Source: Nitrospirae bacterium UBA2233
Lineage (GTDB): Bacteria > UBA2233
DNA: 64,000 nt
Direction of reading: 5' to 3'
Assembly (NCBI GenBank): GCA_002347965.1
Contig: DDYN01000057.1
Coordinates: forward strand, 11,365-75,364
Positions within the stretch are counted from its first letter, which is position 1; each line of letters starts with the position of its first letter. The notes under the pieces are model-generated. The model was not told the DNA's origin and ran no database searches. It was given only the letters and a program-made list of their open reading frames with translations. A program made the translations under genes and the position numbers. Positions 3,069 to 52,914 of this stretch are shown piece after piece.

Positions 3069-3164
3069 GCCAAATCTTCCCTATGCTTTCTCGAAACGGT
3101 GTGTGTCTTTATTCAACGCTGCGTTTATCACAGTTGGGGGCGTGCCTCATGTTCAACGCACCGT

Positions 3165-6329: not shown

Positions 6330-6436
6330 AATTTTCTCCTAGCCCCTGTTTCCCGTCTTTACGACAACCATCTCGAAGGGAGTATCCCGTGCTCATACAA
6401 AACGTAAGGTCGTCCGGGCAAAACGGAAACGACCTG

Positions 6437-17833: not shown

Positions 17834-19702
17834 TCAGAGCGTGCCTCCCGTTTTGATGATTCTGGGCGTCATGAAGATTACTAGCTCCATCGTTGATTTT
17901 TGGAAATCGTGCCGTTTGAACGCGTATCCTAAGACCGGAAGGCTCGAAAGAAGAGGGATGCCGCCCTTGTTTTTCTGGTCGGCAAGCTGAAACACCCCAC
18001 CGATCACGGCCGTCTGGCCGTCGTCCACGATCATCTGCGAGCGCGCTTCTTGTTTATCTATGCCGTAATCCCCCGTCTCGGAGAGGTAGGTCGGCTGGTC
18101 GTTTGTGACGTGGATCTCCATGATGACCCTACCGTCCGGGAGGATGTGCGGCAGTACCTCAAGGAGCAGGTTCGCGTCTTTAAACTCCGTCTCGTACACG
18201 CTCTGCGTTTCAGGGGAGAGGTTCCTTACGGGCAGCTGTACGCCCTGTTTAATCATCCCCTGCGTGTGGTTGACGACGATGATTCGGGGCTGCGAGACCA
18301 GCTTGGCCTGGTTCTTCTGCTCAAGTGCCCGGATAATGGCATCGACGGTGACGGTGTTGGAGATGTCTGTAAGGCCGAACGTGAAAACGCCGCCTTGGTA
18401 GTCCGGCATCTGGTTTCCGCCGAATCGTCCCAAAGAGCCCTGAAGCCCTTGCCCGCCGCCTTGCTGCTGCGGGGAAAACGAGATGTTCGAGTCTGTCGCC
18501 ATATCGTGGGGAAAGACCGAGCCGAACGCGTTGCCGTGAGCCCTGTCGTTCCAGGTTTGCACCCTCCAGTCGATTCCGATGCTCTTTAGGGCATCGAAGC
18601 GCATCTGGACAATGCGCGATTCGATCAGACACTGCTGGGTTTCGATGTCGAGCGCCCTGTCCAAAAACCCTCGGATCGTTTCGATCCTTTCCGGCGTGTC
18701 GTGGATGATGAGCGCGTTTGTCCGCTCATCGAACCCGATGTAGGCATCCTCGCGGCGGCTCTTGAGGTTTGTCAGCTTCTTGGCGAGGTCGGAGGCGTTT
18801 CCGTACTTTATAGGAACAACCTCTATGTTCAAGGGCTTTTTCAAGTCTTCTTGTTTGAGCGCATCCCAGCTCGAGATAAGAATGACCCCGTTTTGCCTCT
18901 TCATGGCCAGGCCCTTCTGTTGCAAGACGACGTCCAGCGCCTTTTCCCAGGTCACGTTTCGCAGGTAGAGCGTAATCGTCCCGCCCACGTCCTCGCCCAC
19001 GACGATGTTCGTCCCCGAGACATCGGCCAGCACCCTGAAGACGTCCTTGACGTCCACGTCCTTGAAGTCGAGCGTGACAGGCTTGCCTACGTACTCTTTA
19101 GGCAGGACGTACTCGGCGGAGGGAACGAGGTCTTTGTTTTCCGGCGCCCGGAACCGCTCGGGTGCCCGGGTAGGCGGCTTGGGGAGCTCTTTTTTGTAAA
19201 GCTCCTTAGGGGGTTGTTGCTCTATCTGGAAAAGCGCCTCTCTAGGCCATACAGCGGCTTCTTCTTCCGCGCCTTGCGTCTTGGCGATCTTGTAGGGCTT
19301 TCCCTTCACGGGAGAAAGGGGGATCTGCGTAGGGGAATAGGAGTCAAGGGTAGCTTGGAGCGGCGGCATTGCTCGCAATGCTTCTTCTTTTTGGTCAGGG
19401 CGGGGATCAACGCCCTCTGGAGGGGCCGGCAAAGGATTCTGCTCCTGGACTGGCCGTTCGAACGATGAAACGGGTAGGGCCGCCGGTTGGAACAAAGGGC
19501 TAGGCGGCGCGTTTTTTAGGATTTCGCTGGCGTAGGATTTGAAGGTCTGCCAGTTCAGCAGGTAGGGGGGAGAAAGGAGGGGCTTAAGCAGTATCGTTTG
19601 GCCAGAATCTATCGCCTCGATAGCGCTTGCGTCGTGCGTCCCAAGCAAGGCCAGGATGCAGCAGGCTGCCCCTAGGGCGTGGCGGGTCAGCAAGGCGCTC
19701 AT
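17834..19702 (-). CDS. pilQ: Type IV pilus secretin PilQ
   Basis: Secretin and N-domain motifs (NIVVGEDVGGTITLYLRNVTWEKALDVVL; VSQPRIIVVNHTQGMIKQG) and position after pilMNOP. Confidence 0.85.
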   Translation of the reverse strand: MSALLTRHALGAACCILALLGTHDASAIEAIDSGQTILLKPLLSPPYLLNWQTFKSYASEILKNAPPSPLFQPAALPVSSFERPVQEQNPLPAPPEGVDPRPDQKEEALRAMPPLQATLDSYSPTQIPLSPVKGKPYKIAKTQGAEEEAAVWPREALFQIEQQPPKELYKKELPKPPTRAPERFRAPENKDLVPSAEYVLPKEYVGKPVTLDFKDVDVKDVFRVLADVSGTNIVVGEDVGGTITLYLRNVTWEKALDVVLQQKGLAMKRQNGVILISSWDALKQEDLKKPLNIEVVPIKYGNASDLAKKLTNLKSRREDAYIGFDERTNALIIHDTPERIETIRGFLDRALDIETQQCLIESRIVQMRFDALKSIGIDWRVQTWNDRAHGNAFGSVFPHDMATDSNISFSPQQQGGGQGLQGSLGRFGGNQMPDYQGGVFTFGLTDISNTVTVDAIIRALEQKNQAKLVSQPRIIVVNHTQGMIKQGVQLPVRNLSPETQSVYETEFKDANLLLEVLPHILPDGRVIMEIHVTNDQPTYLSETGDYGIDKQEARSQMIVDDGQTAVIGGVFQLADQKNKGGIPLLSSLPVLGYAFKRHDFQKSTMELVIFMTPRIIKTGGTL

Positions 19703-20223
19703 CTCGTCCTCCCGATCAGTGTGCGTTGCTCGTCTTGCGGCATACGAAGCTCTCTTTGAATTTCTTTAATCTTCCGGTCGTAGGTATAGTAGCGCTCGGT
19801 AATGACGAGCTTTCCTCTCTCGATTGCCGTGACGACCCCGCCAAAGGGCCCTATCGGTTCTTTTGGTCGAACGATGTAAGAATCGCCGTCCGGCGTCGCC
19901 ACAACGGCCATCGGCTGGCTTGCCACGAACGTCGCCTTGAGCCTAAGCTCGCGGATTGCGAAACGCTGCAGGGGCGACGGAGGCCCTTCGGTATGGATCG
20001 GGTATAGCATCCGCTCTCTTTCCGGGATCGAGAAAAAAATGTCCGGAATGCTTTCTTTTTTCACGGATGCAAGCGCATTTTTTAGGCGTTGAAGGTCCGA
20101 TAAGGGCGATTTGTCTTGCCCTAAGACGGGCGTCCAAAGGGCCGAAAGGCATACAAACAAGGCCCCTAGCAATCCAAAAATGCCGGGCCTTCTAAAGGCC
20201 TTTCTCATGGGCACCTCCTGCAT
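19699..20223 (-). CDS. pilP: Type IV pilus assembly protein PilP-like
   Basis: Small N-terminally anchored protein between pilO and pilQ, with a C-terminal beta-rich region. Synteny-based. Confidence 0.5.
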   Translation of the reverse strand: MQEVPMRKAFRRPGIFGLLGALFVCLSALWTPVLGQDKSPLSDLQRLKNALASVKKESIPDIFFSIPERERMLYPIHTEGPPSPLQRFAIRELRLKATFVASQPMAVVATPDGDSYIVRPKEPIGPFGGVVTAIERGKLVITERYYTYDRKIKEIQRELRMPQDEQRTLIGRTR

Positions 20224-20845
20224 GGCCCTCTGGATCGGTTCCCTCCGGAAGGACCCGAATGAACCCGACTTTTCCCTTGAGCGGGATTTCCGTGTAGAGC
20301 TCGCCAGGCTTTAGCTGCGCAGAGGGTTTGAGCGCAAAATTCTCCGGGATGTAAGCAAGACCCTCTAAGGGAAGCCTCGCAAGAGTCCAGGCAAAAGAAG
20401 GGTAGCTCGTCTCGACCGAAGCGCTGAGGCGCTCGAGCGGGGCCGGGTACTCTCCTTTTCTGGCCGGCTCGATGGAGGGTTCCTCTATAAGGGCAATCCC
20501 CCCTTCCTGGAACATCTTATCTAGGGCTGTTAACGAATCGTCTTTTTTGGGGCCCTTGAGGCGGCCGAGCGTCTGCTCTAGCCTTACTTTGAGGGCTTTG
20601 GCTTCAAGCTCTACGTGTCCCCCTTCTTGAATTTCTTCGCGGACACGCACCAGCCTGGCACGTGTCGTTCGTTCCTGGATGGATAGAAGGCTATAGTCTT
20701 GCAGTTTCGGGCGGATCAAGAGAACCTCGAGCGCGAGGACGATCGCTACTGCGGGCAGGATGCCGAGAACGACCCTTCCTACAGGTGGGAGGGCAAGGAG
20801 TAGGTTATCGAGGGCTTCTAGAAGGCCTTGCCGATTATTCGCCAT
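20192..20845 (-). CDS. pilO: Type IV pilus assembly protein PilO
   Basis: Single N-terminal TM followed by a coiled-coil; position between pilN and pilP. Confidence 0.6.
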   Translation of the reverse strand: MANNRQGLLEALDNLLLALPPVGRVVLGILPAVAIVLALEVLLIRPKLQDYSLLSIQERTTRARLVRVREEIQEGGHVELEAKALKVRLEQTLGRLKGPKKDDSLTALDKMFQEGGIALIEEPSIEPARKGEYPAPLERLSASVETSYPSFAWTLARLPLEGLAYIPENFALKPSAQLKPGELYTEIPLKGKVGFIRVLPEGTDPEGHAGGAHEKGL

Positions 20846-21395
20846 CTAGCCCCTCCTTCAGGCCGAGCTCTACTTCCAAGGAGGTCCGAAGGAACGAGCC
20901 TCCGTCGAGTTGAACGCCCTCCGGCTTGGAAAGGCTGACGCTCACGACGCAGGGGTACTCGTCGAATTTCTGCCGAAGGCTGGAAGCCGCCCCCGCGGAG
21001 GAAACGAGGACGTTTGCCCTAAGGCGGTTCTGCTCCAGCCTAAGCTCCTCAACCCACCCGTAGGGGAAGAGGTCTTTGGAGAACGAAGCCATGAAGTGCG
21101 GGACGCAGACGCGCCTTTGCTCGAGCCGATTTAGGGCCGTAAGGCGCTTCTGGTCTTGCTCGATCGTCCTTCTTGCGCTGCGGATGGCCCTTGCCCTGGG
21201 TTCGAGTTTGGAAAGCTCTACATTGAGCGAAGCCAGACGAACCCTGGCTGCCCGTGATTCTCGCGTCGCGAAAAAGCCGTGCAGCCCGGCGAGGAGAAGC
21301 CCGATCATGAGCGATGCGAACAGCGCCCGGGCGGCTTCCCTTCGGGCGTCCGTGCTTAGTTTGTCTTTGAGGGGTAGCAGGTTTACTTTGATCAT
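20835..21395 (-). CDS. pilN: Type IV pilus assembly protein PilN
   Basis: MIKVNLLPLKDKL... N-terminus typical of PilN; overlaps pilM and pilO. Confidence 0.7.
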   Translation of the reverse strand: MIKVNLLPLKDKLSTDARREAARALFASLMIGLLLAGLHGFFATRESRAARVRLASLNVELSKLEPRARAIRSARRTIEQDQKRLTALNRLEQRRVCVPHFMASFSKDLFPYGWVEELRLEQNRLRANVLVSSAGAASSLRQKFDEYPCVVSVSLSKPEGVQLDGGSFLRTSLEVELGLKEGLDGE

Positions 21396-22465
21396 GCGCG
21401 GACCCTCGCAAGGACCTCTTTGATCTCGTGCAAGCCAAGGCCAAAGGCCACGCTGAACAAGGGGGCCTTTTCTTTTAGCTCGCCCAAGTCGAGCTTGTCT
21501 TTTTGGACGCCAACCCTGGCGAACGGGTTCAGGGCCGAGGTGCGGGCGGGTGTCCGTCGCTGAAAAGCCTGCCTAAAATGTTCAAGGCATGCAAGCCCTC
21601 CAGAGAGGTAGATGGGCGTTCCTGGGTCCGTCAGCCTAAACCCTTCCCTGCCGAGTGTAAACGCGAGCGCTTCGAAAAGCTCCCCCAGGAAGGTTTCGAG
21701 CGCTCCTAGCGCTTGCTCGGCGGGCGGCCCCGGGGCTTCGAGCATGTCGGCCGCCTCTATGGGGCCGGTTCCGGTTGCAAGCTGGATCCGTTCGATGACG
21801 CCTTTGCCCCCAAGGGGGAAATCCTGGACGGTAAGCGGCCCTTCTTTGTCCGCGACAACGACCAAAGTTCGGACGTGGCCCGTGTGTACGACAATGGCTT
21901 GCCCGTCGAAGTCCGGCCCCTGGCTGTGCTGGAAGGCGTTGTAGAGGGCGAGGGCATCGAGGTCCACGGTGCGCACCTTAAGGCCGGCAAGCTCGACCAC
22001 GCGCACGTATTCATCGACGAACTCTCGTTTGGCTGCCGCCGCGGAGATCTCCACCTGTGCCAGCCCGCGCTCGTTGAGCCTAAGCGCGGCGAAGTCGAGG
22101 TAGACATCGTCGAGCTTAAAAGGAAAGGCGCTTGCGAAATTCTCTTTAATGTAGCTTGGGATGTTTTGCTCGGGCATGAAGGGCACCTCGAAGAGCCGGG
22201 TCATTACCTTCGATCCGGACACGGAGATGGCCACCTTCTTGTGGCTTGGCTTGATTTCGGTAAAGAGAGACCGGACTTCTCGTGCAACCTCTCTAGAGTC
22301 AACGAGGTCTTTTTCGACGATACACTCCGGGTTTAAACGAACACAGCCGATTTTGCCAAGAAGTAAACCTTTGCGTCCCCGCGTAAGCTCAAGGACCTTG
22401 ATATAAGACGACCCTACATCAAGCCCGACTAGGTACGGGCGAGTCCCAAGAATACTGCCGAGCAT
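21392..22465 (-). CDS. pilM: Type IV pilus assembly ATPase-fold protein PilM
   Basis: Actin-like fold signatures (LVGLDVGSSYIKVLEL...; FtsA-like), 357 aa. Confidence 0.85.
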   Translation of the reverse strand: MLGSILGTRPYLVGLDVGSSYIKVLELTRGRKGLLLGKIGCVRLNPECIVEKDLVDSREVAREVRSLFTEIKPSHKKVAISVSGSKVMTRLFEVPFMPEQNIPSYIKENFASAFPFKLDDVYLDFAALRLNERGLAQVEISAAAAKREFVDEYVRVVELAGLKVRTVDLDALALYNAFQHSQGPDFDGQAIVVHTGHVRTLVVVADKEGPLTVQDFPLGGKGVIERIQLATGTGPIEAADMLEAPGPPAEQALGALETFLGELFEALAFTLGREGFRLTDPGTPIYLSGGLACLEHFRQAFQRRTPARTSALNPFARVGVQKDKLDLGELKEKAPLFSVAFGLGLHEIKEVLARVRA

Positions 22466-22574: not shown

Positions 22575-24977
22575 TCACGAAGTGGGGGCTGGAAGGGCCG
22601 TAGCAGTTCCAGATTGGCCCCCTCCTAGCAACGAGGTTGCCTGGCCAAGAGTTTGAACGAGCATGTCGATGCCTTCGGACGTCGTCCTAAGAAGCTTCAA
22701 AAATGGGAGCGTCGCCTCGTAGGCGTTTCGGCTGAAAGGAAGCGCGGCGAACAGCGCGGCCAAAAGATCGCCCGCCGTGACGTTCTCCATGGAGTTGAGC
22801 ACCTGAATGTCGAACGGTTCGCCTTTGTTGATCGGCAAGGGGTGGGTGGGCGTCGACTGCCCGGGCATAAAATAGGGAGAGAACACAAAGACCTTCCCCC
22901 AGTCCTGCGAGGCGAACGTGTTTCCCTCGAATGTAAGCGCAGCCTGTCTGTTTTGATCGAGTCCGGCGTTCAAGGGGAGCCCTAGCAGGGCAAGGTATGG
23001 GTTTTGAGTCGTGGGGACAAACTGAATACCCGTGGCCTCTTCCGACCCAGACGCCTCTTCCGTGGCCACCCCTTGTTGAGCCCCTACTTGGCCGGGTTCT
23101 GGTTGTCCCTGGGGCTCGCCCGTTTTTTGAGGCTTGCCCGCTCTTCCGAACGCAAAACCCTGGCCCAGGCTTCGCCCTGGCAGGAAATCTCCGCGGCTTG
23201 GCCCTGCCTCACGTCCTTTAAGTCCGGAGCGGTTGCCAGGAGGAAGGGCGTTACTTGTCGCGTTCATCTCCTCTAGCGCTTGAACGCTCGGTTGTGTCCC
23301 GCCAAGCCCTGGCGGTGTCCCGCCAACGCCAAGGCCAACGCCCTCGGGCACGCCGCCTTGGGGCTGGGTGCCTACCGGTTGGGTGGCCTGCTGAATAAGC
23401 CCCGCCGGGTTCATCTCGGCGGGGTTAAACAAATATCCCTCGTACCTGGCCACGAAGAACCCCTTCGGGAGAAGCCAAGCCTCTTTCCACGGGCTCGTTT
23501 CGATCGCCTGCGTGAAGGTTGCCCTCCATGTCCCCGTGGCCACCCCTTGTTGAGCCCCTACTTGGCCGGGTTCTGGTTGTCCCTGGGGCTCGCCCGTTTT
23601 TTGAGGCTTGCCCGCTCTTCCGAACGCAAAACCCTGGCCCAGGCTTCGCCCTGGCAGGAAATCTCCGCGGCTTGGCCCTGCCTCACGTCCTTTAAGTCCG
23701 GAGCGGTTGCCAGGAGGAAGGGCGTTACTTGTCGCGTTCATCTCCTCTAGCGCTTGAACGCTCGGTTGTGTCCCGCCAACGCCCGCTTCAACGCCCTCGG
23801 GCACGCCGCCTTGGGGCTGGATACTTCCTTCTTCGCCGCCCGCTCCCGAACCGCCCGGGCTAATCGGGTTCGAGAGGGCGGCATCACAGTAGGCAACAAC
23901 CCCCGGGGTAGTCGTGGCGCGCAAGATGGGCTTGACGAGCCAATCGAAAAGCTTGTCCATAAGGGCCTCGACAACGGGCATGATCAGGTTAACCGCGCTG
24001 CCCAAAGCCGGGGCCACAACGGCCGCCCCGCCGCCTGCTGCCGCCCCGGCACCGGCCGTTACGGGTGCAGTGGCCGCCCCGCCGGCCATCGAGGCGACGC
24101 TCACGGCCAACTGGACGGCCTGGAGGCCGGCCTGCAGCGCCTCGGTGGTGACGGTTTTCACCCCCTCTGCGATGTAGTCCACCCTTTCCATGGCGTCACT
24201 CTCCGCTTTGGGCTGGGGCAACGAAACCCCCGACAGGGGCTTTGGGTTGACAAACGCCGCGTCGATGTTCCTTGGTTGGGCACGTGCGACGAACCGGTAG
24301 GGGCGGTAGTTCTGCCCGAACGTCCCGAGCATCCTTTGGCTTGCTCCCGTCTGGGCTAGCGCCTCGATCTCTAGCTCGGCATAGGCCAGGCGCTCGAGTT
24401 TGCCAGATGGAACGCTGTAGGGGTAGGTTTTATCCAGCCGGACAAGGGCGCCAGGGCCTGGCTCGGCCCTTTCGTTCAGGCCAAAGAGGTGCAACTCGGC
24501 TCTGGTCAAGGGCTTGAGCTCAAGACGGGATACCTCGATCATGCGCCCGTAGGCTTCCCGGTGCACGATCCGGTAGAGCGTCCAGTATGGGCCGGGGCGC
24601 GAGCCCTTCTTTGCCCCCCACACAACCCAGAGGGGCTGGAAGCCCGGCCTGCTGCTCTCGCTTAAGTATAGCCAGCGCTTGAAGCGAACGCCCCAGTTGA
24701 GCGTAAGCAACCCCTTGTCCGACTGCACGTAAAAAGACCCAGGCCTCGCCTCGAGGCCATTCGTGCTCTCGATCCCCCGGAAGTCCTCTTGAAACAGGTC
24801 GATGGCCAACTGGACCTTGTCGCGCACGCCCGCCCTTGCCCGCTCGAGCGCCTTGAAGCGGGCGTCCTGGGCTACCGTCCAGAAAAGGAGCAGCGCAACG
24901 AGCCCGGAGACGGCCACGCCCACGAGCAGCTCTACGAGCGTGAACCCGCTGGAACCCCTTGTTCGGCATGGTTTCAA
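22575..24977 (-). CDS. Large (800 aa) protein with a prepilin-type N-terminus (GFTLVELLVGVAVSGLVALLLF), internally duplicated; candidate tip/minor pilin adhesin
   Basis: Class III signal-peptide motif at the N-terminus. Gly/Pro/Gln-rich C-terminal half containing a 158-aa tandem duplication. Confidence 0.55.
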   Translation of the reverse strand: MKPCRTRGSSGFTLVELLVGVAVSGLVALLLFWTVAQDARFKALERARAGVRDKVQLAIDLFQEDFRGIESTNGLEARPGSFYVQSDKGLLTLNWGVRFKRWLYLSESSRPGFQPLWVVWGAKKGSRPGPYWTLYRIVHREAYGRMIEVSRLELKPLTRAELHLFGLNERAEPGPGALVRLDKTYPYSVPSGKLERLAYAELEIEALAQTGASQRMLGTFGQNYRPYRFVARAQPRNIDAAFVNPKPLSGVSLPQPKAESDAMERVDYIAEGVKTVTTEALQAGLQAVQLAVSVASMAGGAATAPVTAGAGAAAGGGAAVVAPALGSAVNLIMPVVEALMDKLFDWLVKPILRATTTPGVVAYCDAALSNPISPGGSGAGGEEGSIQPQGGVPEGVEAGVGGTQPSVQALEEMNATSNALPPGNRSGLKGREAGPSRGDFLPGRSLGQGFAFGRAGKPQKTGEPQGQPEPGQVGAQQGVATGTWRATFTQAIETSPWKEAWLLPKGFFVARYEGYLFNPAEMNPAGLIQQATQPVGTQPQGGVPEGVGLGVGGTPPGLGGTQPSVQALEEMNATSNALPPGNRSGLKGREAGPSRGDFLPGRSLGQGFAFGRAGKPQKTGEPQGQPEPGQVGAQQGVATEEASGSEEATGIQFVPTTQNPYLALLGLPLNAGLDQNRQAALTFEGNTFASQDWGKVFVFSPYFMPGQSTPTHPLPINKGEPFDIQVLNSMENVTAGDLLAALFAALPFSRNAYEATLPFLKLLRTTSEGIDMLVQTLGQATSLLGGGQSGTATALPAPTS
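23061..23774. repeat. Tandem direct duplication, period 474 bp; 23061-23300 is essentially identical to 23535-23774, inside the pilin-like gene
   Basis: Identical translated strings on the opposite strand in track ORFs 23004..23276 and 23280..23750 (GHPLLSPYLAGFWLSLGLARFLRLARSS...VTCRVHLL). Direct nucleotide comparison gives an offset of 474. Confidence 0.85.
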
Positions 24978-24990
24978 GGCGCGTCCTCCT

Positions 24991-25599
24991 TCATGGCGGT
25001 GTTTGCGAGCCTACCCAAGCTCCAGGGTTCCTTGCCCAGCCGAGGTCCGGGTTGCAAGCCCCTAGCGTAAGAAGCCTCCCCTGGGTGAGCGAGCCATTCC
25101 CCGTCTCGTTCATCTTTTGCCGAAGGTCTTCTTTGGATGCCGCCCCTCCAAACGGCACCCATTGGATGCGAACCGCAAAAAGGCTGCCATTCTGCGGGAT
25201 TTCGTCAGGCTGGATTAGGTATTCCACGAATTCCGCCTTTTCGTCCACGACGAGGTAATCCCGCCGGTCGTCTCGGTCTTCTTTCTTTCGCCTGACGACC
25301 CCGGCGCTTTGACCGGGCGCAACGAGCCCTAGGCCCGACCGGAGCCCTTCAAAGCTTTCGTCCGTCTCCATTTCATAAGGAAGGGCGCCAAAGCTCTCGG
25401 CCTGTGAACGGGCAAGCCAGAGTGCCTCGTAGGTCCGAAGCCTTTGGGCCAACACCCTCTCGCTAGAGGCCCGAAAGGGCAAAAGAAGCATCGCGCAGAG
25501 CGCGATCAGCGCGATCGCCACGACCACCTCGAGCAGGCTAAAGCCCTTGGGCGTCCGATTGCTCGGCTTTGCGCCCTCCTTCCCGCCTCCGTCTTTCAT
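24991..25599 (-). CDS. Minor pilin / pseudopilin (prepilin N-terminal motif KGFSLLEVVVAIALIAL)
   Basis: Start set at MKDGGG...; the track ORF carries a spurious upstream extension. Confidence 0.6.
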   Translation of the reverse strand: MKDGGGKEGAKPSNRTPKGFSLLEVVVAIALIALCAMLLLPFRASSERVLAQRLRTYEALWLARSQAESFGALPYEMETDESFEGLRSGLGLVAPGQSAGVVRRKKEDRDDRRDYLVVDEKAEFVEYLIQPDEIPQNGSLFAVRIQWVPFGGAASKEDLRQKMNETGNGSLTQGRLLTLGACNPDLGWARNPGAWVGSQTPP

Positions 25600-26186
25600 G
25601 GGCAATCCAGCCCAGGTTGGCAAATTCTTGCTCCCATGTTGTTTGTGTTGCTCACGACAACGCCGTAACTTGCGGCCTGGCCTGGGTCGGCCCCGGAGTC
25701 CATGCGGCCGAAATCGCGTTCCGTGAGCACCCAAAACACCCCCGTGCCGCTCGCAAACGTAGGCCTAGGGCCTGTCTGCAACGAAAGGTACGTTTGGGTC
25801 GAAACCCCCATGTCGGCCACGACGCGGGCGTCTTTGAACATGCGCAAAAAATCCCAAGAATCGATCAGCGCGTCTTTTTGCTTATCCAGAGATCCGCCCA
25901 AATCGTCGTCCCTAAAAAGCGAAACATTCACGATCGCACCCGAGCCGCCCGTTTCCCAGGAAAGAAAGACATCCCTGCCGTAGAAGCGCTCGAGCGTTCT
26001 TGTCTCTTCCAGGGCTGCAAGCAGGAAGTAGGCGGCCTGATGGGCGCGCTCTTTTTGCTGGGCGCCCGGGAACCAGGCCATCGAAAGCCCGGCGAACACG
26101 GCCAGAAGCCCCAGCAATGTGGCGACAACCATGGCCTCCATCAGCGTGAAGCCCGATTCTTTGGTCTTTTCCCTAATTGATTCCAA
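25596..26186 (-). CDS. Minor pilin / pseudopilin (GFTLMEAMVVATLLGLLA)
   Basis: N-terminal methylation motif; 196 aa. Confidence 0.65.
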   Translation of the reverse strand: MESIREKTKESGFTLMEAMVVATLLGLLAVFAGLSMAWFPGAQQKERAHQAAYFLLAALEETRTLERFYGRDVFLSWETGGSGAIVNVSLFRDDDLGGSLDKQKDALIDSWDFLRMFKDARVVADMGVSTQTYLSLQTGPRPTFASGTGVFWVLTERDFGRMDSGADPGQAASYGVVVSNTNNMGARICQPGLDCP

Positions 26187-27153
26187 ACGGCTCCTCTCTA
26201 AAACTTCCGAACCAGCATACGCCGTTTTGAAGTGGTTCTGCGCTTTCTTGGAGGCTTACACGCTCGAGCGTACCCGTTCCCGTGGCTTCGTAACCCATCA
26301 GCTCGACAGAAACCGCCTTCATGCCCGGCCTCTCTTCGGGCCCAAAGAAGGCCACGGCCATAAGCCTCGGGTGGTTTTTGAGGTCTCTTTCGTATGTAGA
26401 GGCCTTTACGAGCACGCCCCGGGCGATGTAGACCTTGGCAATGCCCGGCGCTTGGATACCCGTCTCCTGCGCGAAATCGTAGCAGTCGGCCTCGTTGCCG
26501 CCTTCATCCCTCATGTTCGACAGCCGGATGAACTCCCAGCGCCTCATGTAGGCCGTATTTCCCCCCACGACCTCCAGGAGGACAGAATTGCCTTCAATCG
26601 CCGTAAGAAGGTTTTTGACCTGGCCCTCTTGAAGGGCGTTCACCTCGATTCGCCTACCCGTGGGGGTTTGTAGGCTTGGATTGGCAGGGTCTTGCGTGTT
26701 GTCCAAAAAAAGCGTGGCGAGCATGAGCGGCAAGTCCCGGTAGGCCTCTGGAAGGTTCTCTTTCGTCGCCTTGATCTGCTCTAACCTTTCGACGTAGGCA
26801 CTGTTGGCCTCCACCCAGCCATTCTCGAAGGTTTCCTGCATTTTTTCGGGGTCTCCCGCGAGCAGGTCTGTAGGGGCTTGGGCAGACCCTAGCGAGACGT
26901 CTATACCCGGCGTGAACTCTCCGGCCTCATCCCCGATCGGCGGGGTCGTTTCGTCCAAAAGCCCGAACATCGCCTGTTTGAGACCCGTCTCGGCCATTAC
27001 AAGCCCTTCGTAGGCGCGCTTTTCGATGATGGGCGCCACAGACTCCCGCCCGGCGATCAAAAGCGTTCCGTAGGCCACGATACTCAAAAAGAACAGCACT
27101 ATGAGGGCAAGCCCCACGATAAACCCCGAATCTTGGCCCCTTACGCTTGCCAT
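26173..27153 (-). CDS. PilX-like minor pilin/assembly protein (N-terminal TM MASVRGQDSGFIVGLALIVLFFLSIVAYG)
   Basis: Start chosen at the internal Met. PilX-N-like hydrophobic segment. Confidence 0.45.
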   Translation of the reverse strand: MASVRGQDSGFIVGLALIVLFFLSIVAYGTLLIAGRESVAPIIEKRAYEGLVMAETGLKQAMFGLLDETTPPIGDEAGEFTPGIDVSLGSAQAPTDLLAGDPEKMQETFENGWVEANSAYVERLEQIKATKENLPEAYRDLPLMLATLFLDNTQDPANPSLQTPTGRRIEVNALQEGQVKNLLTAIEGNSVLLEVVGGNTAYMRRWEFIRLSNMRDEGGNEADCYDFAQETGIQAPGIAKVYIARGVLVKASTYERDLKNHPRLMAVAFFGPEERPGMKAVSVELMGYEATGTGTLERVSLQESAEPLQNGVCWFGSFREEPFGIN

Positions 27154-27908: not shown

Positions 27909-28673
27909 CTACCGCACCAGGTTCCGTCTTTCGAACGTTATACAGGCAAGCAGCACGAAAACGGCCGACCACAGCGCAAGGTACAAAAGGCTCAAAAGCC
28001 ATACTGGACATGGAACGCCTAAAACCACCACAGCTTCCAGGTCCGCGGCCACGATGCCAAAATTGGGAAGAGCCCTGTACAAAGCAGGAACGACGGCGCG
28101 CATCCAGCCTATTTCAATGAACCTAGCGCTCGTGGCGGCGGGCTCAAGGCCCGTTGCGATAAGCCAAACGAACACGGTGAGCATGACAGACAGCGTGGGC
28201 GTGCTGAACGTGCCGAGGGCGAGCGCAAGGCTTCCCAAAACGCCTAGCTTTCCTACGTCGATCAGGGCGCCCAAAAAGAAAGCGGCATTCAGCGTTCCTT
28301 GGTAAACAAGCCCGTAGACGAGCGCGAACGGGATGAGCAGCCCTAATACCAAGAGGGCACCCACGAGCAGCAGGCCGAAGAATTTGCCCGTCACGAACCC
28401 GGAGCGGCTCAAGGGTTTGGCGAGCAAAAGGTATGCTGAGCCGCGCTCGAGCTCTTTTGGGACCATGCTTGCCCCAAACAGGATGGCCGTGAAGCAGCCA
28501 AACAGGTACATGCTTGCTTGGCCCGCGTCGTAGACGAACCGCTTTGGGTCGTAGAGCGCGCTGGTGCCAAACAGCACCCCCACCCCGATCAGCACGAGCG
28601 CAACTAGCGCGATCGCGTAGAAGAGCTTTTGCCGGATGATCTCTTTAGCCGTAACGAGCGCGAGCCTAGGCAT
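27909..28673 (-). CDS. ABC-2 family transporter permease (PilI-like position in the pil cluster)
   Basis: Six-TM ABC-2 type permease pattern, adjacent to the ABC ATPase. Confidence 0.6.
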   Translation of the reverse strand: MPRLALVTAKEIIRQKLFYAIALVALVLIGVGVLFGTSALYDPKRFVYDAGQASMYLFGCFTAILFGASMVPKELERGSAYLLLAKPLSRSGFVTGKFFGLLLVGALLVLGLLIPFALVYGLVYQGTLNAAFFLGALIDVGKLGVLGSLALALGTFSTPTLSVMLTVFVWLIATGLEPAATSARFIEIGWMRAVVPALYRALPNFGIVAADLEAVVVLGVPCPVWLLSLLYLALWSAVFVLLACITFERRNLVR

Positions 28674-29595
28674 GATTCAAAAACCGATCGACGAGAAGCT
28701 CTTCCAAAGACGGCCGGATGGGCTCCAGAGTTTCGATCGCACCGCCCATTTGGGTGAGCCGATTGATTGTCTCGCCAAGCAAGCCTTTTGGGACTTCGAG
28801 CGCCCAGCCCCCTTCTTGGGCCTCCAGAACCCGGACATCGGCTCCGAGGCCGTTGGGTGCAAGCTGGCCCAACCCTTTCAAGATGTAGCCGCGCGTGCTC
28901 TCGTCGAGGAAAGCCTTGGGGGAAAACTCGGAAATATTTTTTCCCTTGTCGATCAACACAAGTGCGTCGCAGGACTCCTCGATGTCGGGGATGATATGGG
29001 TCGAAAAGACGAGCGTTCTCCCCTCACTCTTGAGTTCGGCCATCAGGTTGCGCACAACCCCACGCCCGATGGGGTCGAGCCCGCTCATCGGCTCGTCCCA
29101 GATGAGCAGCTCCGGTGTACCCATTAGCGAAAACCCGAGCGCAAGCCGCTGCTGCATGCCCTTGGAGTACCCTTTGACTTCCCTTGTTTCGTGCCCCAAA
29201 AGGCCAAGGCGTTCAATCAGCCTCATGGCCTGCGTTCGGGCCGTTATTTTGCCCAGCTTAAGCAGGCTTCCTGCCAGCATTAGCGTCTCCAGACCATTCA
29301 AATGCGGGTAAAGCCCCGGGTTTTCGGGGGTGTACCCAATTTTTCCGGACAGCACGGCCTCCTTGGGCAAGCCGCCCAAGATCGCGAGCGTACCCTTGGT
29401 TGGCTTCAAAAACCCGAGCATTGTCTTGATGAGCGTGCTCTTCCCCGCTCCGTTCGGCCCGATCAGGGCATACGTCTTGCCCTTTTCGAGCTCTAAATTC
29501 ATCCCTTGGAGCGCAAAGAGGCGCTTTCCCCAAAACCCGACCCGAAACCCCACCCAGAGTTTAGCGACGCGGATCGCTTCAAGCCCAGCTCTCAT
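28666..29595 (-). CDS. ABC transporter ATP-binding protein (PilH-like position)
   Basis: Walker A LIGPNGAGKSTLIKTM, signature and Walker B present. Confidence 0.8.
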   Translation of the reverse strand: MRAGLEAIRVAKLWVGFRVGFWGKRLFALQGMNLELEKGKTYALIGPNGAGKSTLIKTMLGFLKPTKGTLAILGGLPKEAVLSGKIGYTPENPGLYPHLNGLETLMLAGSLLKLGKITARTQAMRLIERLGLLGHETREVKGYSKGMQQRLALGFSLMGTPELLIWDEPMSGLDPIGRGVVRNLMAELKSEGRTLVFSTHIIPDIEESCDALVLIDKGKNISEFSPKAFLDESTRGYILKGLGQLAPNGLGADVRVLEAQEGGWALEVPKGLLGETINRLTQMGGAIETLEPIRPSLEELLVDRFLNHA

Positions 29596-30507: not shown

Positions 30508-31119
30508 TTAATATTCGCTGTTGACCTTCAAAAAGTTCTTGCCTTCCGTGATGGTGCTGCCGGTAAAGGGGGAGGTGTCCTGAGTAGTCGTTGTCGTTCC
30601 AGTTGTTGGGTCCGTCGCCGTTGTCGACCCCGGGGCCGTCGTGGCGTAGACCCACTCGGAGTTGTTCGAATTGGCATCCAAATCGCCGGCCGCGGCGATG
30701 ATTACCTCCGTGTGCCTGGGGAAAGACAACCCTTGGAAAGAAACGTCCGGGCTGATCTGTGTTCCTGCAACGCCCATTTTTGCAATCTGGTAGGAGTAGT
30801 AGGTGGGGCCGCTGGGCACAAACCCCATCGCGGCAAATTTCTTCTGGCCGTCGGTGTCCATTTTCCAAGAGACGCGTGCGCCAAGCGGTACCGTGCTTAA
30901 AGATGGCGGGACAACAGGGTAGCCGTCGTTCTCCGAGCTCCACATGAGCGACATGTCGTAGATCGAGCCAAGGTTGATTTTGGCCTCGGACTCCTTGGCC
31001 TTGAGCGTGTAGTTCTTGTAAACCGGGTAGGCGATCGAGGCCAAAATCCCGATGATGGCGACCGCGATCATCAGCTCGATGAGCGTAAACCCGCCGTCCG
31101 AGCGCTTGTTCTTTTTCAT
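30508..31119 (-). CDS. pilA: Major type IV pilin PilA (prepilin, Thr-rich C-terminal tail)
   Basis: [32 protein letters not shown] class III leader. Start at 31119 with an AAGGAGAAG SD. C-terminal [25 protein letters not shown]. Confidence 0.8.
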
Positions 31120-31369
31120 CGCAGCTTCTCCTTTGTTGCTGTTGCTGTTGGTAGCGGATGGTTCTGAAACTCGATTTTCTGACCTCCTAAGGAACATGCC
31201 TCCTCCTTTCAGTGCTTCGTCCGTCTCGGGCTGGGCTGAAAAGCCGCAGCTTATTGTTGTGGTTCTTCCTGGAAGACGCCGCTTGGTTTACGTCGGGCGC
31301 TTTGGGCAACGATCGTTTTTGGCGCGTTTAGTCTTTCATGGTCGAAGCCCTCTTTATGTTGACCGCTTC

Positions 31370-31645
31370 TCATGGCAGCAAAAATCCGTTCAAAACGAGC
31401 GGGTTTTGGGGCGCGTTGACATCCAAAAAAGGCGTAAGGAGCACGTCGTCAACGTAGTAAACGAACCACTCGAAAAAAGGGAGATAGCCCATGCTAGGGA
31501 TGAGCAGGTCGTTCAAGAACGTACTGAGGCCGGTGCCGATCAGGTTGATTGAATCCAACATGGAGCCTAAGCTTGCCTGTATGAGGCTGCCCGAAGCCCC
31601 GAGGACGTCTGTCGAGGCTTGGCCGGATGCCGTGAAAATCTCCAT
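31370..31645 (-). CDS. Small (91 aa) hydrophobic/aromatic-rich protein of unknown function, translationally coupled downstream of pilC
   Basis: ATG at 31645 preceded by AAGGAG at 5 nt spacing. Shares FLN-type motifs with the two peptides at 41.5 kb. Confidence 0.5.
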   Translation of the reverse strand: MEIFTASGQASTDVLGASGSLIQASLGSMLDSINLIGTGLSTFLNDLLIPSMGYLPFFEWFVYYVDDVLLTPFLDVNAPQNPLVLNGFLLP

Positions 31646-31660
31646 GCGTGCTCCTTTTTG

Positions 31661-32890
31661 TCAGCCTTGGATTTGATTCACCAATTCGCCCATCTTGAAA
31701 AGCGGCATGTACATAGAAATGAGTATGAACCCGATGATTCCGCCCATGCCCAAGAGTAGGGCGGGCTCCAAAAGGCTCAACATCGTCTCGATCGCGCTTT
31801 CTGTCTCGGACTCGTAGTAGGCGCTTACCTTTTGGAGCATTTGATCGAGCGTACCCGACATCTCGCCCGCAGCCACCATTTGAACGACCATTCCTGGAAA
31901 ATGCGGGTCCTTCCCCATCGAAGCGGCCATAGATTCACCTTGGCGTACGCTTTCGGCCACGCCCAGGATCGCGTCTTTTAGCGCGAGGTTGGAGATGGCC
32001 CGCGAGCTTGTCTCGAAGCAGCGCATGACGGGCAGGCCACAGGCCAAAAGCGTCCCGAACGTGTCGGCAAAGTGTGCCAGGCCGGATTTGTGCGCAACGG
32101 GCCCGATGGCCGGAAGTTTCAAGGCGAGCCTATGCCAAGCCCGCTTGATACGGGGCACTTTCATGAGCGCGTATGCCATAACGACAACCCAGACGAGCAC
32201 GGCCGCCGTGATGAACGCGTGGTCTCTTAGGGCATGGCTTGTTGCTAGCATGAACTTCGTGGTCGGGGGAAGGATCGTCACAAAGTCCTTGAACGTGGCC
32301 TCGAAGCTCGGGATTACCCAAAGGAGGAATAGCAGGATCACGCCCGAAGATAAGACGGCCAGCACGCTCGGGTAGACGATCGCCCCGCGGATCCTGCGCT
32401 TGATGGCGAGCGCCTTTTCGATGTGGGTGGCCAGCCTGCCCAGCACCCTGCCTAAAATACCAGAGCTCTCGCCCGCCTCTACGGTCCCCGCGTAGACCTC
32501 GTCGAACACTTTGGGGTGGGCTCCGAGCGCGTCATGGAGGCTCGCGCCTCCCTCGACCTCGGCGATGATGTCGGATAGGACCTTGGCGAAGTAAGGGTTG
32601 CGCTCTTCTTTCCTGAGCGTGCCAAGCGCGGTCAGAAGCGGCAATCCCGCCTCTATCATGGCCGCGAGCTGACGGGTGAAGGCAAGCAACTCTTTTGCCT
32701 TAACCCGTCCTTTCAAGAAGGGCACGCGAATCTCTCTTTTGAGGAGGCTTGGCTTTTTTTCCTTGAGCCCTACCAAAAGGAGGCGTTCGCTGTACATCCA
32801 GGCCTTGGCGGCCGCCTCGGAGCTTGCCTCGAGGGTTCCATGCTTGACCTCCCCCTCCTTCGTCCTTGCGGTGTAAGCGTATACCGGCAT
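31661..32890 (-). CDS. pilC: Type IV pilus inner-membrane platform protein PilC (GspF family)
   Basis: Two GspF repeats, 409 aa, between pilT and pilA. Confidence 0.85.
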   Translation of the reverse strand: MPVYAYTARTKEGEVKHGTLEASSEAAAKAWMYSERLLLVGLKEKKPSLLKREIRVPFLKGRVKAKELLAFTRQLAAMIEAGLPLLTALGTLRKEERNPYFAKVLSDIIAEVEGGASLHDALGAHPKVFDEVYAGTVEAGESSGILGRVLGRLATHIEKALAIKRRIRGAIVYPSVLAVLSSGVILLFLLWVIPSFEATFKDFVTILPPTTKFMLATSHALRDHAFITAAVLVWVVVMAYALMKVPRIKRAWHRLALKLPAIGPVAHKSGLAHFADTFGTLLACGLPVMRCFETSSRAISNLALKDAILGVAESVRQGESMAASMGKDPHFPGMVVQMVAAGEMSGTLDQMLQKVSAYYESETESAIETMLSLLEPALLLGMGGIIGFILISMYMPLFKMGELVNQIQG

Positions 32891-32910
32891 GGGCGCTTGT
32901 TCCTATTTTC

Positions 32911-34032
32911 TTAGGACGGCCGGCCCCGAAGAAGCGGGCCGTTGTTTTTCGTGTTCTTGAAAAGCTGGAGAGCCCGGTAGAATTCTTCCGCGTCGGAGGC
33001 CGCGTACAGTGCGTCCTCTTCGGATATTGTGCCCCTTGCGAACGCCTCGGCGAGCATTTGGCTCATCGTGACCATTCGGGTTTTTTCTTGGCCCATCTGC
33101 ATTTGGGAGTAGATCTGGTGGGCCTTGCCCTCCCGGATTAAGTTGCGGACGGCCGGAGTGGCTACGAGGAACTCGTAGACCATGACCCTGCCGCCTCCTA
33201 CCTTGGGCAGGAGCCTTTGGCAAAGGACGGCGTCCAAGACGAAGGAGAGCTGGATCCGCACCTGGGCTTGCTGGTGAGGCGGGAAGACGTCGATAACGCG
33301 GTTGATCGTCTGGACGGCCGAGTTGGTGTGCAGCGTCGAGAAGACCATGTGTCCCGTCTCGGCGATGTGCAGCGCGGCCTCGATGCTCTCCAAATCGCGC
33401 ATCTCGCCGATCAGCACGACGTCCGGGTCTTCGCGCAGCACGCTCCTTAACGCCCTCGGGAAGCTTACAGAGTCTTGGCCAATCTCGCGCTGGTTGACGA
33501 CGGAGCGCCTATGGCGGTGGAGGTACTCTATGGGGTCTTCGATCGTGACGATATGCGCCCTCTTGGCCTGATTGATGGCGTCGACCAGCGAAGCCAGCGT
33601 TGTCGACTTTCCTGACCCCGTCGGCCCGGCCACAAGGATAAACCCCTGGGGCTTTAGGGCCAGCTCCTCTAAGACTTGGGGCAGCCCAAGGGCGCGAAGC
33701 GGCCAAGGTTCGAACGGGATGAGCCGGATCGCCAGCGCAAGCGAGCCTCGTTGATGGTAAGCGTTGACACGAAACCTGCCGACGCCTTCAATCCCGAAGG
33801 AAAAATCGACCTCCATTTGAGTAGTGAGGGCCTCCCATTTGCCGGGGGCACTCACGATGTCCTTGGCGATAGCCTCGATTTGTTGGGGGGTCAAGGGGGC
33901 ATATCCTTCAAGCTCCACAAGTGCTCCGTCCACGCGGACCACCGGGGGTACGCCCACGGTCAGGTGAAGGTCGGAGCCTTTCTTGTCGGCGAGGACCTCT
34001 AGGAGGCTTCGTATCGCGATGTCCATGCTCAT
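32911..34032 (-). CDS. pilT: Twitching-motility retraction ATPase PilT
   Basis: MSMDIAIRSLLEVLADKKGSDLHL... Walker A GPTGSGKSTT, Asp box and His box. The ATG overlaps the pilB stop (ATGA). Confidence 0.9.
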   Translation of the reverse strand: MSMDIAIRSLLEVLADKKGSDLHLTVGVPPVVRVDGALVELEGYAPLTPQQIEAIAKDIVSAPGKWEALTTQMEVDFSFGIEGVGRFRVNAYHQRGSLALAIRLIPFEPWPLRALGLPQVLEELALKPQGFILVAGPTGSGKSTTLASLVDAINQAKRAHIVTIEDPIEYLHRHRRSVVNQREIGQDSVSFPRALRSVLREDPDVVLIGEMRDLESIEAALHIAETGHMVFSTLHTNSAVQTINRVIDVFPPHQQAQVRIQLSFVLDAVLCQRLLPKVGGGRVMVYEFLVATPAVRNLIREGKAHQIYSQMQMGQEKTRMVTMSQMLAEAFARGTISEEDALYAASDAEEFYRALQLFKNTKNNGPLLRGRPS

Positions 34033-35831
34033 CGGTCCGGCATGGTGGATGAGGCGACTTCTTCGATGCTCGTGACGCCCGCCTTGGCCTTTTCGAGCCC
34101 CATCTGCCTTAGCGTTCGCATTCCAAACCGCCTTGCCTCGCGCTTGACCTCCGCAATGGGCGCCCGGTCCAAGAACATTTCCCGGATCTCGTCGTTGACG
34201 GCGAGCACCTCGAAAATTCCTACCCTGCCCAAATACCCTGTGTTGAAGCACTTTGGGCAGCCTTTTGGGCCGAACAGGCTAAGGTCTGGAATATCCCTGG
34301 GGTCGAACCCCACCTGAATCAGCGCCTTGGGGGGAGGCTTGAGCGGAACCTTGCAATGGGGACATAGCTTTCTTAGGAGCCGCTGGGCCATCGTTAAAAC
34401 GACCGAAGAAGCGACCAGGTATGGCTCGACGTTCATGTTGGTCAGCCTTGCGAGCGCGGAAGGGGCGTCGTTGGTGTGCAACGTGGAAAGTATGAGATGG
34501 CCCGTGAGGGAGGCCTTTATGGCGATGTCGGCCGTTTCGAAGTCCCGGATTTCGCCCACAAGGATAATATCCGGGTCTTGGCGCAGGAACGAGCGTATCG
34601 CGGAGGCGAACGTGAGTTCGATCTCTTCGTGGACCTGCATTTGGTTGATTCCGGGCAAGTCGAACTCGATCGGGTCTTCGGCCGTCATGATGTTGACGGA
34701 TTCCTTGTTGAGCTCGATGAGCATGCTGTAGAGTGTCGTGGTTTTCCCCGAGCCCGTCGGGCCGGTTACGAGCACCATCCCTTGAGGGGCGTGGATCGCG
34801 CGCATCACGGAATAGAGCTCGTCTTGCTCCATGCCGAGCCTTCGGACATCGATCTGGAGGGCCGCCTTGTCGAGCAGCCGAAGGACCGCTTTTTCTCCGA
34901 AGAACGTCGGAATAACGCTCACGCGGATGTCGATAGTCCTGCCGTGGCCGAGCGCGTAGTGGATTCTCCCGTCCTGGGGGAGTCGCTTCTCCGCGATGTC
35001 GAGCTGGCTTAAGATCTTGATGCGCGAAACGACCGAACCCGCGATTGGCACGGGAAACGAGAACACCTTAACGAGCTTGCCGTCTAGTCTGTAGCGCACG
35101 CGGAACGTGTCCTCGAAGGGCTCGAAGTGGACATCCGAGGCCCCTGCGGCGATTGCTTTTCTCATCACGTAGTCGACAAGGTTGACGACCGCATCGTCCG
35201 TTTTTTGCTGGCCTACTGACCAAACCGCCGCGGCTGGCTTACGCTGGGATTCGCGCGCTTCCATGAGTGCCGTGTTGACGAAAATATCGAGGTTTGTGTC
35301 GTTCTCCTCGAACCGCCAGATACCCTTGGGTTCTGCGGTGAAACGCTCGCGGGTATAGTCCCTTAGCTGGATTGCCGGCTTGACGGCAGACTCTTGTTTG
35401 AGCGAGGGGTAGAGCGTTTCACGACAGGCCCGAACCTGGCCGAAGGTTGCCACGAGCGGACGAAAATGGTATTCAGTGGCGAACTCGAGGTCTTTTAGCG
35501 TACCGAGAGCCTCGATGTCGGCGACGAGCATCCAGACATCCCGGCCCTCTCTCTTGAGCGGGACGATGTAGGGGTTGTTCTTAATCAGCTCGGGAGGAAG
35601 CACGGTTGAAAGGGAAGCATCCGGGGTGAGGCTGCCTTGTTGTGCCCTTGGAACGTGGCTTATTTCGGCCAGAAACGCCGCAAGCTGCTCTTCGCTCGTT
35701 TCTTCCAGCATCAAGACGTGTTCCAAGAGGCTCCCGCCCTTGTGGCGCACCAGCCACTCGGCCTGGCTTACGGCAAGTTCCGAAGCAAGGCCCTTGGAGA
35801 TCAGCAAATGTCCCAAGTCTTTGGTTTGCAT
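34029..35831 (-). CDS. pilB: Type IV pilus extension ATPase PilB (GspE family, N-terminal GSPII_E_N domain, CxxC tetrad)
   Basis: GPTGSGKTTTLYSM Walker A, the CPHCK...CPKC zinc motif, 600 aa. Confidence 0.9.
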   Translation of the reverse strand: MQTKDLGHLLISKGLASELAVSQAEWLVRHKGGSLLEHVLMLEETSEEQLAAFLAEISHVPRAQQGSLTPDASLSTVLPPELIKNNPYIVPLKREGRDVWMLVADIEALGTLKDLEFATEYHFRPLVATFGQVRACRETLYPSLKQESAVKPAIQLRDYTRERFTAEPKGIWRFEENDTNLDIFVNTALMEARESQRKPAAAVWSVGQQKTDDAVVNLVDYVMRKAIAAGASDVHFEPFEDTFRVRYRLDGKLVKVFSFPVPIAGSVVSRIKILSQLDIAEKRLPQDGRIHYALGHGRTIDIRVSVIPTFFGEKAVLRLLDKAALQIDVRRLGMEQDELYSVMRAIHAPQGMVLVTGPTGSGKTTTLYSMLIELNKESVNIMTAEDPIEFDLPGINQMQVHEEIELTFASAIRSFLRQDPDIILVGEIRDFETADIAIKASLTGHLILSTLHTNDAPSALARLTNMNVEPYLVASSVVLTMAQRLLRKLCPHCKVPLKPPPKALIQVGFDPRDIPDLSLFGPKGCPKCFNTGYLGRVGIFEVLAVNDEIREMFLDRAPIAEVKREARRFGMRTLRQMGLEKAKAGVTSIEEVASSTMPDR

Positions 35832-52905: not shown

Positions 52906-52914
52906 GTCGGCCCG

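Follow-up and report, generated by a model that had tools for sequence, protein, structure and literature searches.

A large pilin-like protein with two DNA-identical repeat modules in a type IVa pilus locus of Nitrospirae bacterium UBA2233

Gene structure and parts of the encoded protein

The DNA analyzed here is a stretch of 64,000 nucleotides (nt) from Nitrospirae bacterium UBA2233 (GenBank assembly GCA_002347965.1, contig DDYN01000057.1, positions 11,365 to 75,364 of the forward strand), referred to below as the window. It contains a complete type IVa pilus gene cluster, and the gene under study is the fourth of four minor-pilin genes located between pilD and pilMNOPQ. The open reading frame (22575..24977, minus strand) encodes a protein of 800 residues. 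It starts with a TTG codon at 24975-24977, and an AAGGAGG Shine-Dalgarno sequence at 24985-24991, 7 nt 5' of the TTG, overlaps the stop codon of the preceding gene. An initial annotation, made from the sequence alone, described the product as a pilin-like protein about four times longer than a pilin and drew attention to a duplication in its distal half.

The N-terminus of the protein reads MKPCRTRGSSG|FTLVELLVGVAVSGLVALLLFW, with Gly at position -1 (G11), Phe at +1 (F12) and Glu at +5 of the predicted cleavage site. The prepilin N_methyl motif was recognized above the cutoffs both by Pfam PF07963 (23.9 bits, cutoff 21.2, residues 7-32) and by TIGR02532 (18.8 bits, cutoff 16.3). The strongest hydrophobic stretch, with a hydropathy maximum of 2.57, spans residues 9-37, and a prepilin peptidase and the pilus assembly machine are encoded nearby. 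Thus, the prepilin leader and transmembrane helix named in the initial annotation were confirmed, as was the unusual length, since the local major pilin has 203 residues. The protein was divided into the following parts:

24945..24977, minus strand: prepilin leader peptide (residues 1-11, MKPCRTRGSSG), predicted cleavage before F12
24192..24944, minus strand: pilin module (residues 12-262), a hydrophobic alpha1 helix with Glu at +5 followed by a head of about 200 residues
23820..24191, minus strand: Ala/Gly/Val-rich low-complexity linker or stalk (residues 263-386; 21% Ala, 14% Gly, 12% Val)
23535..23819, minus strand: repeat module R1 (residues 387-481), Gly/Pro/Gln-rich, holding the exact 246-nt copy at 23534-23779
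23370..23534, minus strand: unique segment W between the repeats (residues 482-536), conserved in the repeat-less homolog P0005
23031..23369, minus strand: repeat module R2 (residues 537-649), holding the exact 246-nt copy at 23060-23305
22578..23030, minus strand: orphan C-terminal domain (residues 650-800), 46% identical to the C-terminus of P0005

When the whole protein was compared with Pfam and NCBIfam, and its pieces with Pfam at E <= 10, the N_methyl motif was the sole match. The pilin module aligned with pseudopilins of about 280 residues over its first 100 residues (hhalign probability 98.5%). In a profile search of the PDB, it matched generic pilins in the alpha1 helix only, as did the ~280-residue pseudopilins themselves, while W together with the C-terminal domain returned noise (E >= 0.7). 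The length of the Ala/Gly/Val-rich linker differs among strains, with an 11-residue deletion in P0001/L001, expansions in P0003/P0004 and an expansion of about 20 residues in L006/L007 (relatives described below).

Repeat modules, their recurrence and gene conversion

The gene contains an exact direct repeat of 246 nt (23060-23305 and 23534-23779), a length far beyond chance. The copies are spaced by 474 nt, i.e., 158 codons. A match of 53 nt at a spacing of 453 nt adjoins them, and local alignment joins both matches into a repeat of about 308/329 nt; thus, the repeat extends about 60 nt further with one 21-nt indel and four mismatches. The initial annotation had placed the DNA-identical stretches within a few bases of these coordinates. 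Its 474-bp period holds, but its two tandem units of 158 residues do not: only about 95-113 residues of each 158-residue period are repeated, and the remaining 55 residues (residues 482-536, segment W) are unique. The layout is therefore R1-W-R2, an interspersed duplication. As the copies are not arranged head to tail, Tandem Repeats Finder reported no array, and a tblastn search with the module returned no further copy in the rest of the window. A true 158-residue tandem unit would require that W and the start of R2 represent a divergent duplicate of what follows R2; this was rejected since the similarity between W and the sequence following R2 was not significant (score 25, shuffle mean 25).

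The modules consist of about 22% Gly, 12% Pro and 10-12% Gln, in agreement with the Gly/Pro/Gln-rich character noted initially, and contain few hydrophobic residues. On account of this composition, they are probably disordered. A head with the elastin-like motif GVPxGVGxGVGG, the 40-residue core GNRSGLKGREAGPSRGDFLPG.S.GQGFAFGRAGKPQKTG and a tail that is acidic and Gln-rich make up each module. Relative to R1, R2 carries a 21-nt insertion (GGTPPGL), and it ends in the acidic tail EEASGSEEAT. At the protein level, the core was invariant in 9/9 module copies examined, and the two cores of the related sequence L002 differ solely at synonymous sites. In the window, the GVPxGVGxGVGG heads lie at 23300-23369 and 23770-23819 (minus strand). 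An RGD triplet is present within the 40-residue core and was given no weight. In L002 and L007, R2 contains one extra internal duplication of the head motif of about 24 residues (gene nt 1684-1900 in L002); the module is therefore itself liable to expansion of sub-repeats.

Homologs were sought by three word-indexed searches and by an exhaustive HMMER search that covered 1.84 billion representatives. The family proved to be very small, and three of its members (P0003, P0004 and P0015) are fragments. P0001 and P0016 have 783 residues and are 95% identical in the alignment, P0002 has 870 residues and is 86% identical, and the distant homolog P0005 has 529 residues with 32-46% identity over aligned blocks. 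At E <= 0.001, HMMER returned 12 matches; three were true relatives, one was a spurious match to low-complexity sequence, and the rest were confined to the N-terminal 70-130 residues. Such N-terminal-only matches belong to the ~280-residue pseudopilins. Genome and metagenome scans added solely a copy 93% identical in the Nitrospirae metagenome-assembled genome WOFB21, whose contig ends at residue 291, in the linker.

P0005 is colinear with the pilin module (32% identical in this region), the Ala/Gly-rich region, W and the C-terminal domain, and has neither R module. Its similarity to W is well above chance (score 70 against 24+/-5 for shuffled sequences; 0 of 1000), and its linkers flanking W comprise only about 8-10 acidic/Gly residues each. 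Since P0005 keeps W and the C-terminal domain without the modules, the sequence comparison identifies R1 and R2 as lineage-specific expansions of both linkers around W.

The DNA was recovered for L001, L008 and L009 (from three different samples) and for L002, L005, L006 and L007. The R1-W-R2 layout was found in six independent assemblies (the window, L001, L008, L009, L002 and L007), and L001, L008 and L009 each have an exact repeat of 287 nt whose copies are spaced by 453 nt. This recurrence bears on the assembly artefact considered by the initial annotation. An assembler might have wrongly duplicated a single module or homogenized two copies. Such an error would fit the breaks of related contigs within or close to the repeats and the low-complexity sequence (L003 at residue 291; P0015 on a 1.6-kb contig) and the single copy in L006, and bubble-popping might remove a small number of true differences between R1 and R2. 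However, all six assemblies cross R1-W-R2, the copies have different unique flanks and differ by the 21-nt indel, and W is present in P0005 and under strong purifying selection (ratio of non-synonymous to synonymous substitution rates, dN/dS, of 0.05 between window and L001). An artefact is thus very unlikely.

The copies within one genome are more alike than the same module in different genomes. In the window and in L001, the two copies show 0 differences over 246 nt, whereas 14 of the 246 sites differ between these genomes, and every one of the 14 is mirrored, with R1 and R2 of a genome having the same genome-specific base. Under independent evolution of the copies after the split, the Poisson probability of observing 0 differences given 14 would be about 8e-7. 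The synonymous divergence (dS) of the flanking domains is 0.06-0.15 between the window and L001 and reaches 0.47 in comparison with L002. In a neighbor-joining tree, the copies of the window/L001 clade group by genome, and both are R1-like, while the R2 copies of L002 and L007 cluster by position. In L002 and L007, the copies share only about 81% identity overall: the edges have diverged according to position, the 40-residue core is homogenized, and genome-specific variants of the ~130-nt core occur in both copies.

The simplest reading of these sequences is that the duplication is old and that the copies are kept identical by recurrent intragenic gene conversion, i.e., concerted evolution. 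On the same reading, conversion would recur in every lineage and always span the core, the tract lengths extending from about 130 nt in L002 to 287 nt or more in L001, and R1-type sequence would have overwritten R2 in the window/L001 clade. The identity of the copies may be a by-product of homologous recombination between nearby direct repeats, whether selected or not.

A very recent duplication in this genome, the first explanation offered initially, would account for 100% identity over 246 nt. Nevertheless, the same layout, W spacer and junctions occur in lineages with flanking dS of 0.2-0.47, so the duplication predates their split; moreover, the copies of L002 and L007 are only ~81% identical, their R2 copies are orthologous by position, and R1 and R2 share each of the 14 differences that separate the window from L001. 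A recent origin is therefore extremely improbable. Selection alone, with every nucleotide of the module constrained, e.g., by an overlapping RNA or antisense element, would agree with the protein-level invariance of the 40-residue core in all nine copies. The orthologous modules, however, differ at synonymous and non-synonymous sites (5 and 9 changes, respectively, for R1 between the window and L001), with the same changes in both copies. Rfam and tRNA scans revealed nothing within the gene, and the antisense open reading frames are typical noise of high-GC DNA. A promoter and terminator scan of the gene gave consensus-level matches only, and the antisense hairpin with a T-run that it reported is the A6 run of each core. 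Selection as the sole cause is hardly credible. The mirrored differences within each genome show that neither selection alone nor recent duplication explains the identity of the copies. Recurrent gene conversion after an old duplication is thus the reading retained, with one technical caution given below.

Purifying selection acts on the whole gene. Between the window and L001, the R modules had a dN/dS of 0.5-0.6, and the other domains (W, the pilin module and the C-terminal domain) of 0.05-0.28. The pilin module gave values of 0.14-0.23 and the C-terminal domain of 0.13-0.28. In comparisons with L002, the R modules showed 0.32-0.46 and the domains 0.13-0.73. As dN/dS was <1 throughout, the open reading frame is real and its R modules are under relaxed constraint.

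Long repeats under concerted evolution are familiar from genes for surface proteins. In the group B streptococcal alpha C and Rib proteins and in staphylococcal SasG/Aap, internal repeats are DNA-identical within a strain and different between strains. The gene described here shares with them the higher likeness within than between genomes. In those proteins, the repeats are head-to-tail, variable in copy number and folded, whereas here two copies surround W, are predicted to be disordered and appear stable in number, and no head-to-tail array was found by Tandem Repeats Finder. The gene offers a clean small case of intragenic gene conversion across four related lineages and five gene sequences. 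For genome scanning, it suggests that DNA-identical intragenic repeats need not be recent or artefactual.

The initial annotation had also considered a recombinationally variable repeat and called for a comparison of copy number across related strains. Two copies were found in six assemblies, and in every intact gene, and one copy only in the frameshifted contig L006, where assembly collapse is possible. Hence, the recombination part of that suggestion finds support in the form of gene conversion rather than of variation in copy number, for which L006 would be the one candidate.

L006 and L007 are contigs of the Joint Genome Institute (JGI 3300014366 and 3300019140, respectively) and are 97-98% identical in the flanks. 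In L006 (affected span 1600-1960), one module is joined directly to the C-terminal domain without W, which is the product expected from recombination between R1 and R2. Two 1-nt homopolymer deletions break its reading frame. L007 (affected span 600-2100) has lost single nucleotides in a similar way: a G4 run of the conserved pilin module is read as G3, and the A6 run of each core as A5. Counting L006, the run is A5 in each of the three R copies present in the two contigs. The repeats of this sub-lineage share no more than 75 nt of exact identity. L006 is either a true deletion variant, a pseudogene or a case of phase variation, or it reflects assembly collapse combined with homopolymer errors.

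Alternatively, the gene might undergo programmed or frequent recombinational switching between a one-copy form lacking W and the two-copy form, possibly together with slippage at the A6 run of each core, with size or phase variation of a tip adhesin as a consequence. The exact match of L006 to the predicted W-less recombinant, the in-frame spacings of 474 and 453 nt and the A5 reading of every core in L006 and L007 are in line with such switching. Against this, two copies are present in every intact open reading frame, the homopolymer deletions in L006 and L007 resemble sequencing errors, and exact identity of at most 75 nt lies within the range of k-mer mis-joins. In addition, the deletion would lose the conserved W, and six A residues are short for a phase-variable tract. 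Switching is accordingly regarded as unlikely, and two modules held alike by gene conversion remain the preferred description. If switching did occur, the pilus tip would change in reach or be turned on and off, and L006 would be a natural switched variant.

The type IVa pilus locus and the minor-pilin set

The genes of the cluster are arranged in the order pilB, pilT, pilC, a small open reading frame, pilA (203 residues), a gene for a 298-residue protein, genes for an ATP-binding cassette (ABC) ATPase and a permease, pilD, the four pilin-like genes, pilM-N-O-P-Q and aroC. The gene order in L001 is identical. The neighbors of the gene are:

24991..25599, minus strand: GspI/PilV-like minor pilin, 202 residues; N_methyl motif, best Escherichia coli match GspI (16.4 bits), weak GspI and ComGE matches in NCBIfam
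25596..26186, minus strand: GspH/FimU-like minor pilin, 196 residues; TIGR01708 (GspH) with E = 2.9e-9, below the equivalog cutoff
26173..27153, minus strand: pilin-like protein of 326 residues without Glu at +5 (G|FIVGL), GspK/PilX-like by size and absence of Glu5 only; also called in L001
27141..27893, minus strand: prepilin peptidase PilD (Pfam A24_N_bact and Peptidase_A24)
17834..22465, minus strand: pilM-N-O-P-Q assembly and secretin genes, immediately downstream (PilM_2, Secretin and STN matches, weak PilP match)
30508..35831, minus strand: pilB, pilT, pilC and pilA (NCBIfam PilB 628 bits, pilT_fam 457, GspF/PilC 350-359, PilA_Myxo N-terminal match)
27909-30488, minus strand: ABC ATPase, ABC-2 permease and unannotated 298-residue protein, between pilA and pilD

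The ABC ATPase, permease and 298-residue protein genes mirror the pilG/H/I arrangement of Myxococcus, and the locus as a whole is Myxococcus-like.

Four minor pilins together with PilY1 are known to prime the pilus and to occupy its tip, and PilX and GspK lack Glu5 (PMC7541494). Since the other three pilin-like genes look K-, H- and I-like, the 800-residue protein would by elimination take the GspJ/PilW place in the set. Its Glu5, its pilin module of about 250 residues and the ~280-residue pseudopilins as its nearest distant relatives fit this assignment, and weak matches to HpsC, PpdB and GspJ occurred among the distant pseudopilin comparisons. The T2SSJ, PilW and TIGR01711 profiles gave no match to the protein even at E <= 10. 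As in the GspH-I-J-K and FimU-PilV-PilW-PilX sets, the gene is the fourth of a four-gene set and encodes Glu5 and a PilW-sized module (PMC7541494). It differs in gene order, which would be K-H-I-J here, and in the C-terminal extension of about 540 residues that canonical GspJ/PilW proteins lack.

No PilY1 domain was detected in any open reading frame of the window. The 800-residue protein itself has no Pfam match to the PilY1/Neisseria_PilC domain, and its signal peptide is of class III, whereas PilY1/PilC tip adhesins have a type I signal peptide and a beta-propeller domain at the C-terminus. It is at most a functional analogue of PilY1.

Proposed role and comparison with known systems

Taken together, the product of the gene is proposed to be a large minor pilin of modular build, belonging to a type IVa pilus, with a role at the tip or in priming and with an old duplication kept alike by gene conversion. 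This combined reading is considered probable, with considerable room for doubt. For the role as a pilus-tip component or adhesin, the operon context makes a plausible case.

According to this proposal, PilD would cleave the 11-residue leader, and the pilin module (residues 12-262) would join the GspK/PilX-like, GspH-like and GspI-like minor pilins in a priming complex that ends at the tip. The remaining ~540 residues would be cargo, consisting of the Ala/Gly-rich stalk, the small conserved segment W and the orphan C-terminal domain. Shown at the tip, this cargo would probably do a PilY1-like job, as an adhesin or a tip plug, a suggestion drawn from the locus lacking PilY1. The short acidic/Gly linkers on either side of W would each have been expanded by the same module of about 100 residues in this lineage. 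The R modules may thus form long flexible tethers around W, each with a conserved short motif, and yield a bivalent, extensible tip.

Several observations weigh against this proposal. The linker contains a moderately hydrophobic stretch (residues 317-338, hydropathy 1.9), which is unusual for a subunit of a secreted filament. AlphaFold2 models of the full protein, from a three-sequence alignment, and of P0005 alone reached a mean confidence score (pLDDT) of 27.7 and 34.2, respectively, and are unusable as fold evidence; the helix-then-strands pattern in these low-confidence models is only suggestive. Hidden Markov model and phmmer typing against E. coli GspG/H/I/J/K and PpdA-C/YgdB was undiscriminating (GspG 12.4 versus GspJ 11.8 bits). 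A PilY1 gene could lie beyond the 64 kb analyzed, and conservation-based inference is thin with so small a family. Finally, bubble-popping in short-read assembly could slightly inflate the identity of the copies.

The pilin module might instead serve only to anchor the protein, at the base of the machine or within the inner membrane, with the cargo acting in the periplasm, where it might, e.g., sit beneath the PilQ secretin as a plug or spacer. Long flexible linkers could span the periplasm, and the second hydrophobic stretch would suit such an anchor. Glu at +5, the canonical alpha1 helix and co-encoding with three minor pilins and PilD speak against it, and the large pilins ComZ, CofB and PilB have been modelled at filament tips (PMC8179133; PMC6561018). 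A location away from the tip is a minor possibility, and a tip location remains the preferred one. A bolder version of the tip proposal is that, in a pilus lacking PilY1, a pilin in the PilW/GspJ position took over the role of a tip adhesin through fusion to an orphan domain, with the DNA-identical modules serving as a recombination switch. It is considered unlikely.

Type IVb minor pilins provide one point of comparison. CofB and TcpB form trimeric tips, initiate assembly, and possess beta-repeat and beta-sandwich domains. Like them, the 800-residue protein extends its pilin module through a flexible linker into additional sequence at the C-terminus (an architecture of CofB/TcpB also discussed in PMC8179133). 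Unlike it, they belong to type IVb systems and have no duplicated low-complexity modules.

The modular pilins PilB and PilC of Streptococcus sanguinis are minor subunits with a bulky C-terminal module that is probably exposed at the tip and gives the filament a further function (Raynaud et al. 2021; PMC8179133). They likewise have a class III signal peptide, an N-terminal pilin module and an extra C-terminal module, and the present protein has about 540 residues after its pilin module, including a C-terminal domain common to P0005. In contrast, its cargo has no recognizable Pfam, NCBIfam or PDB signature, and the host is a diderm with a type IVa/PilQ machine. The parts of PilB and PilC are joined by a short loop, whereas about 120 Ala/Gly-rich residues and two low-complexity, probably disordered modules of about 100 residues act as connectors here. 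Modular pilins without a recognizable module signature are acknowledged to exist (PMC8179133).

Enlarged minor pilins have been proposed to replace PilY1 in cyanobacteria (bioRxiv 10.64898/2026.02.12.705559). ComZ of Thermus thermophilus and cyanobacterial PilX resemble the 800-residue protein as oversized minor pilins of PilY1-less type IVa pili with a proposed function as tip cap or plug (PMC6561018; bioRxiv 10.64898/2026.02.12.705559). In those proteins, the extra domain is a beta-solenoid tied to the pilin fold or to PilX-type subunits. The protein described here differs in that it keeps Glu5, and so is not PilX/GspK-like, and in that its extension is C-terminal; no sequence similarity to ComZ or PilX was detected.

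The protein adds an uncharacterized, lineage-restricted example to the oversized and modular minor pilins that diversify pilus tips, and suggests how a PilY1-less type IVa pilus of Nitrospirae-type bacteria might present a tip module. The case is real and fairly ordinary, and opens no new kind of biology.

Beyond the pilus locus, further genes were noticed in the window. At 6077-10003 (plus strand), a ribonucleotide reductase large subunit of 1308 residues is split by an intein whose homing endonuclease is of the LAGLIDADG type (Pfam matches to Intein_splicing, LAGLIDADG_3 and Hom_end fall in residues ~275-697), and a TSCPD domain is located at its C-terminus. At 1371-4746 (minus strand), an HsdM-like methylase of a type I restriction-modification system matches the first 144 of 311 positions of the N6_Mtase profile and may be truncated; it adjoins a gene for a 565-residue protein with Schlafen/AlbA_2, HATPase_c_4 and winged-helix domains. 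A menaquinone-type operon at 49419-57030 (minus strand) encodes MenF-like chorismate-binding, MenD-like thiamine pyrophosphate-dependent and MenB-like enoyl-CoA hydratase enzymes, together with a UbiA/MenA prenyltransferase, a MenC-like MR_MLE enzyme and a MenE-like AMP-binding enzyme.

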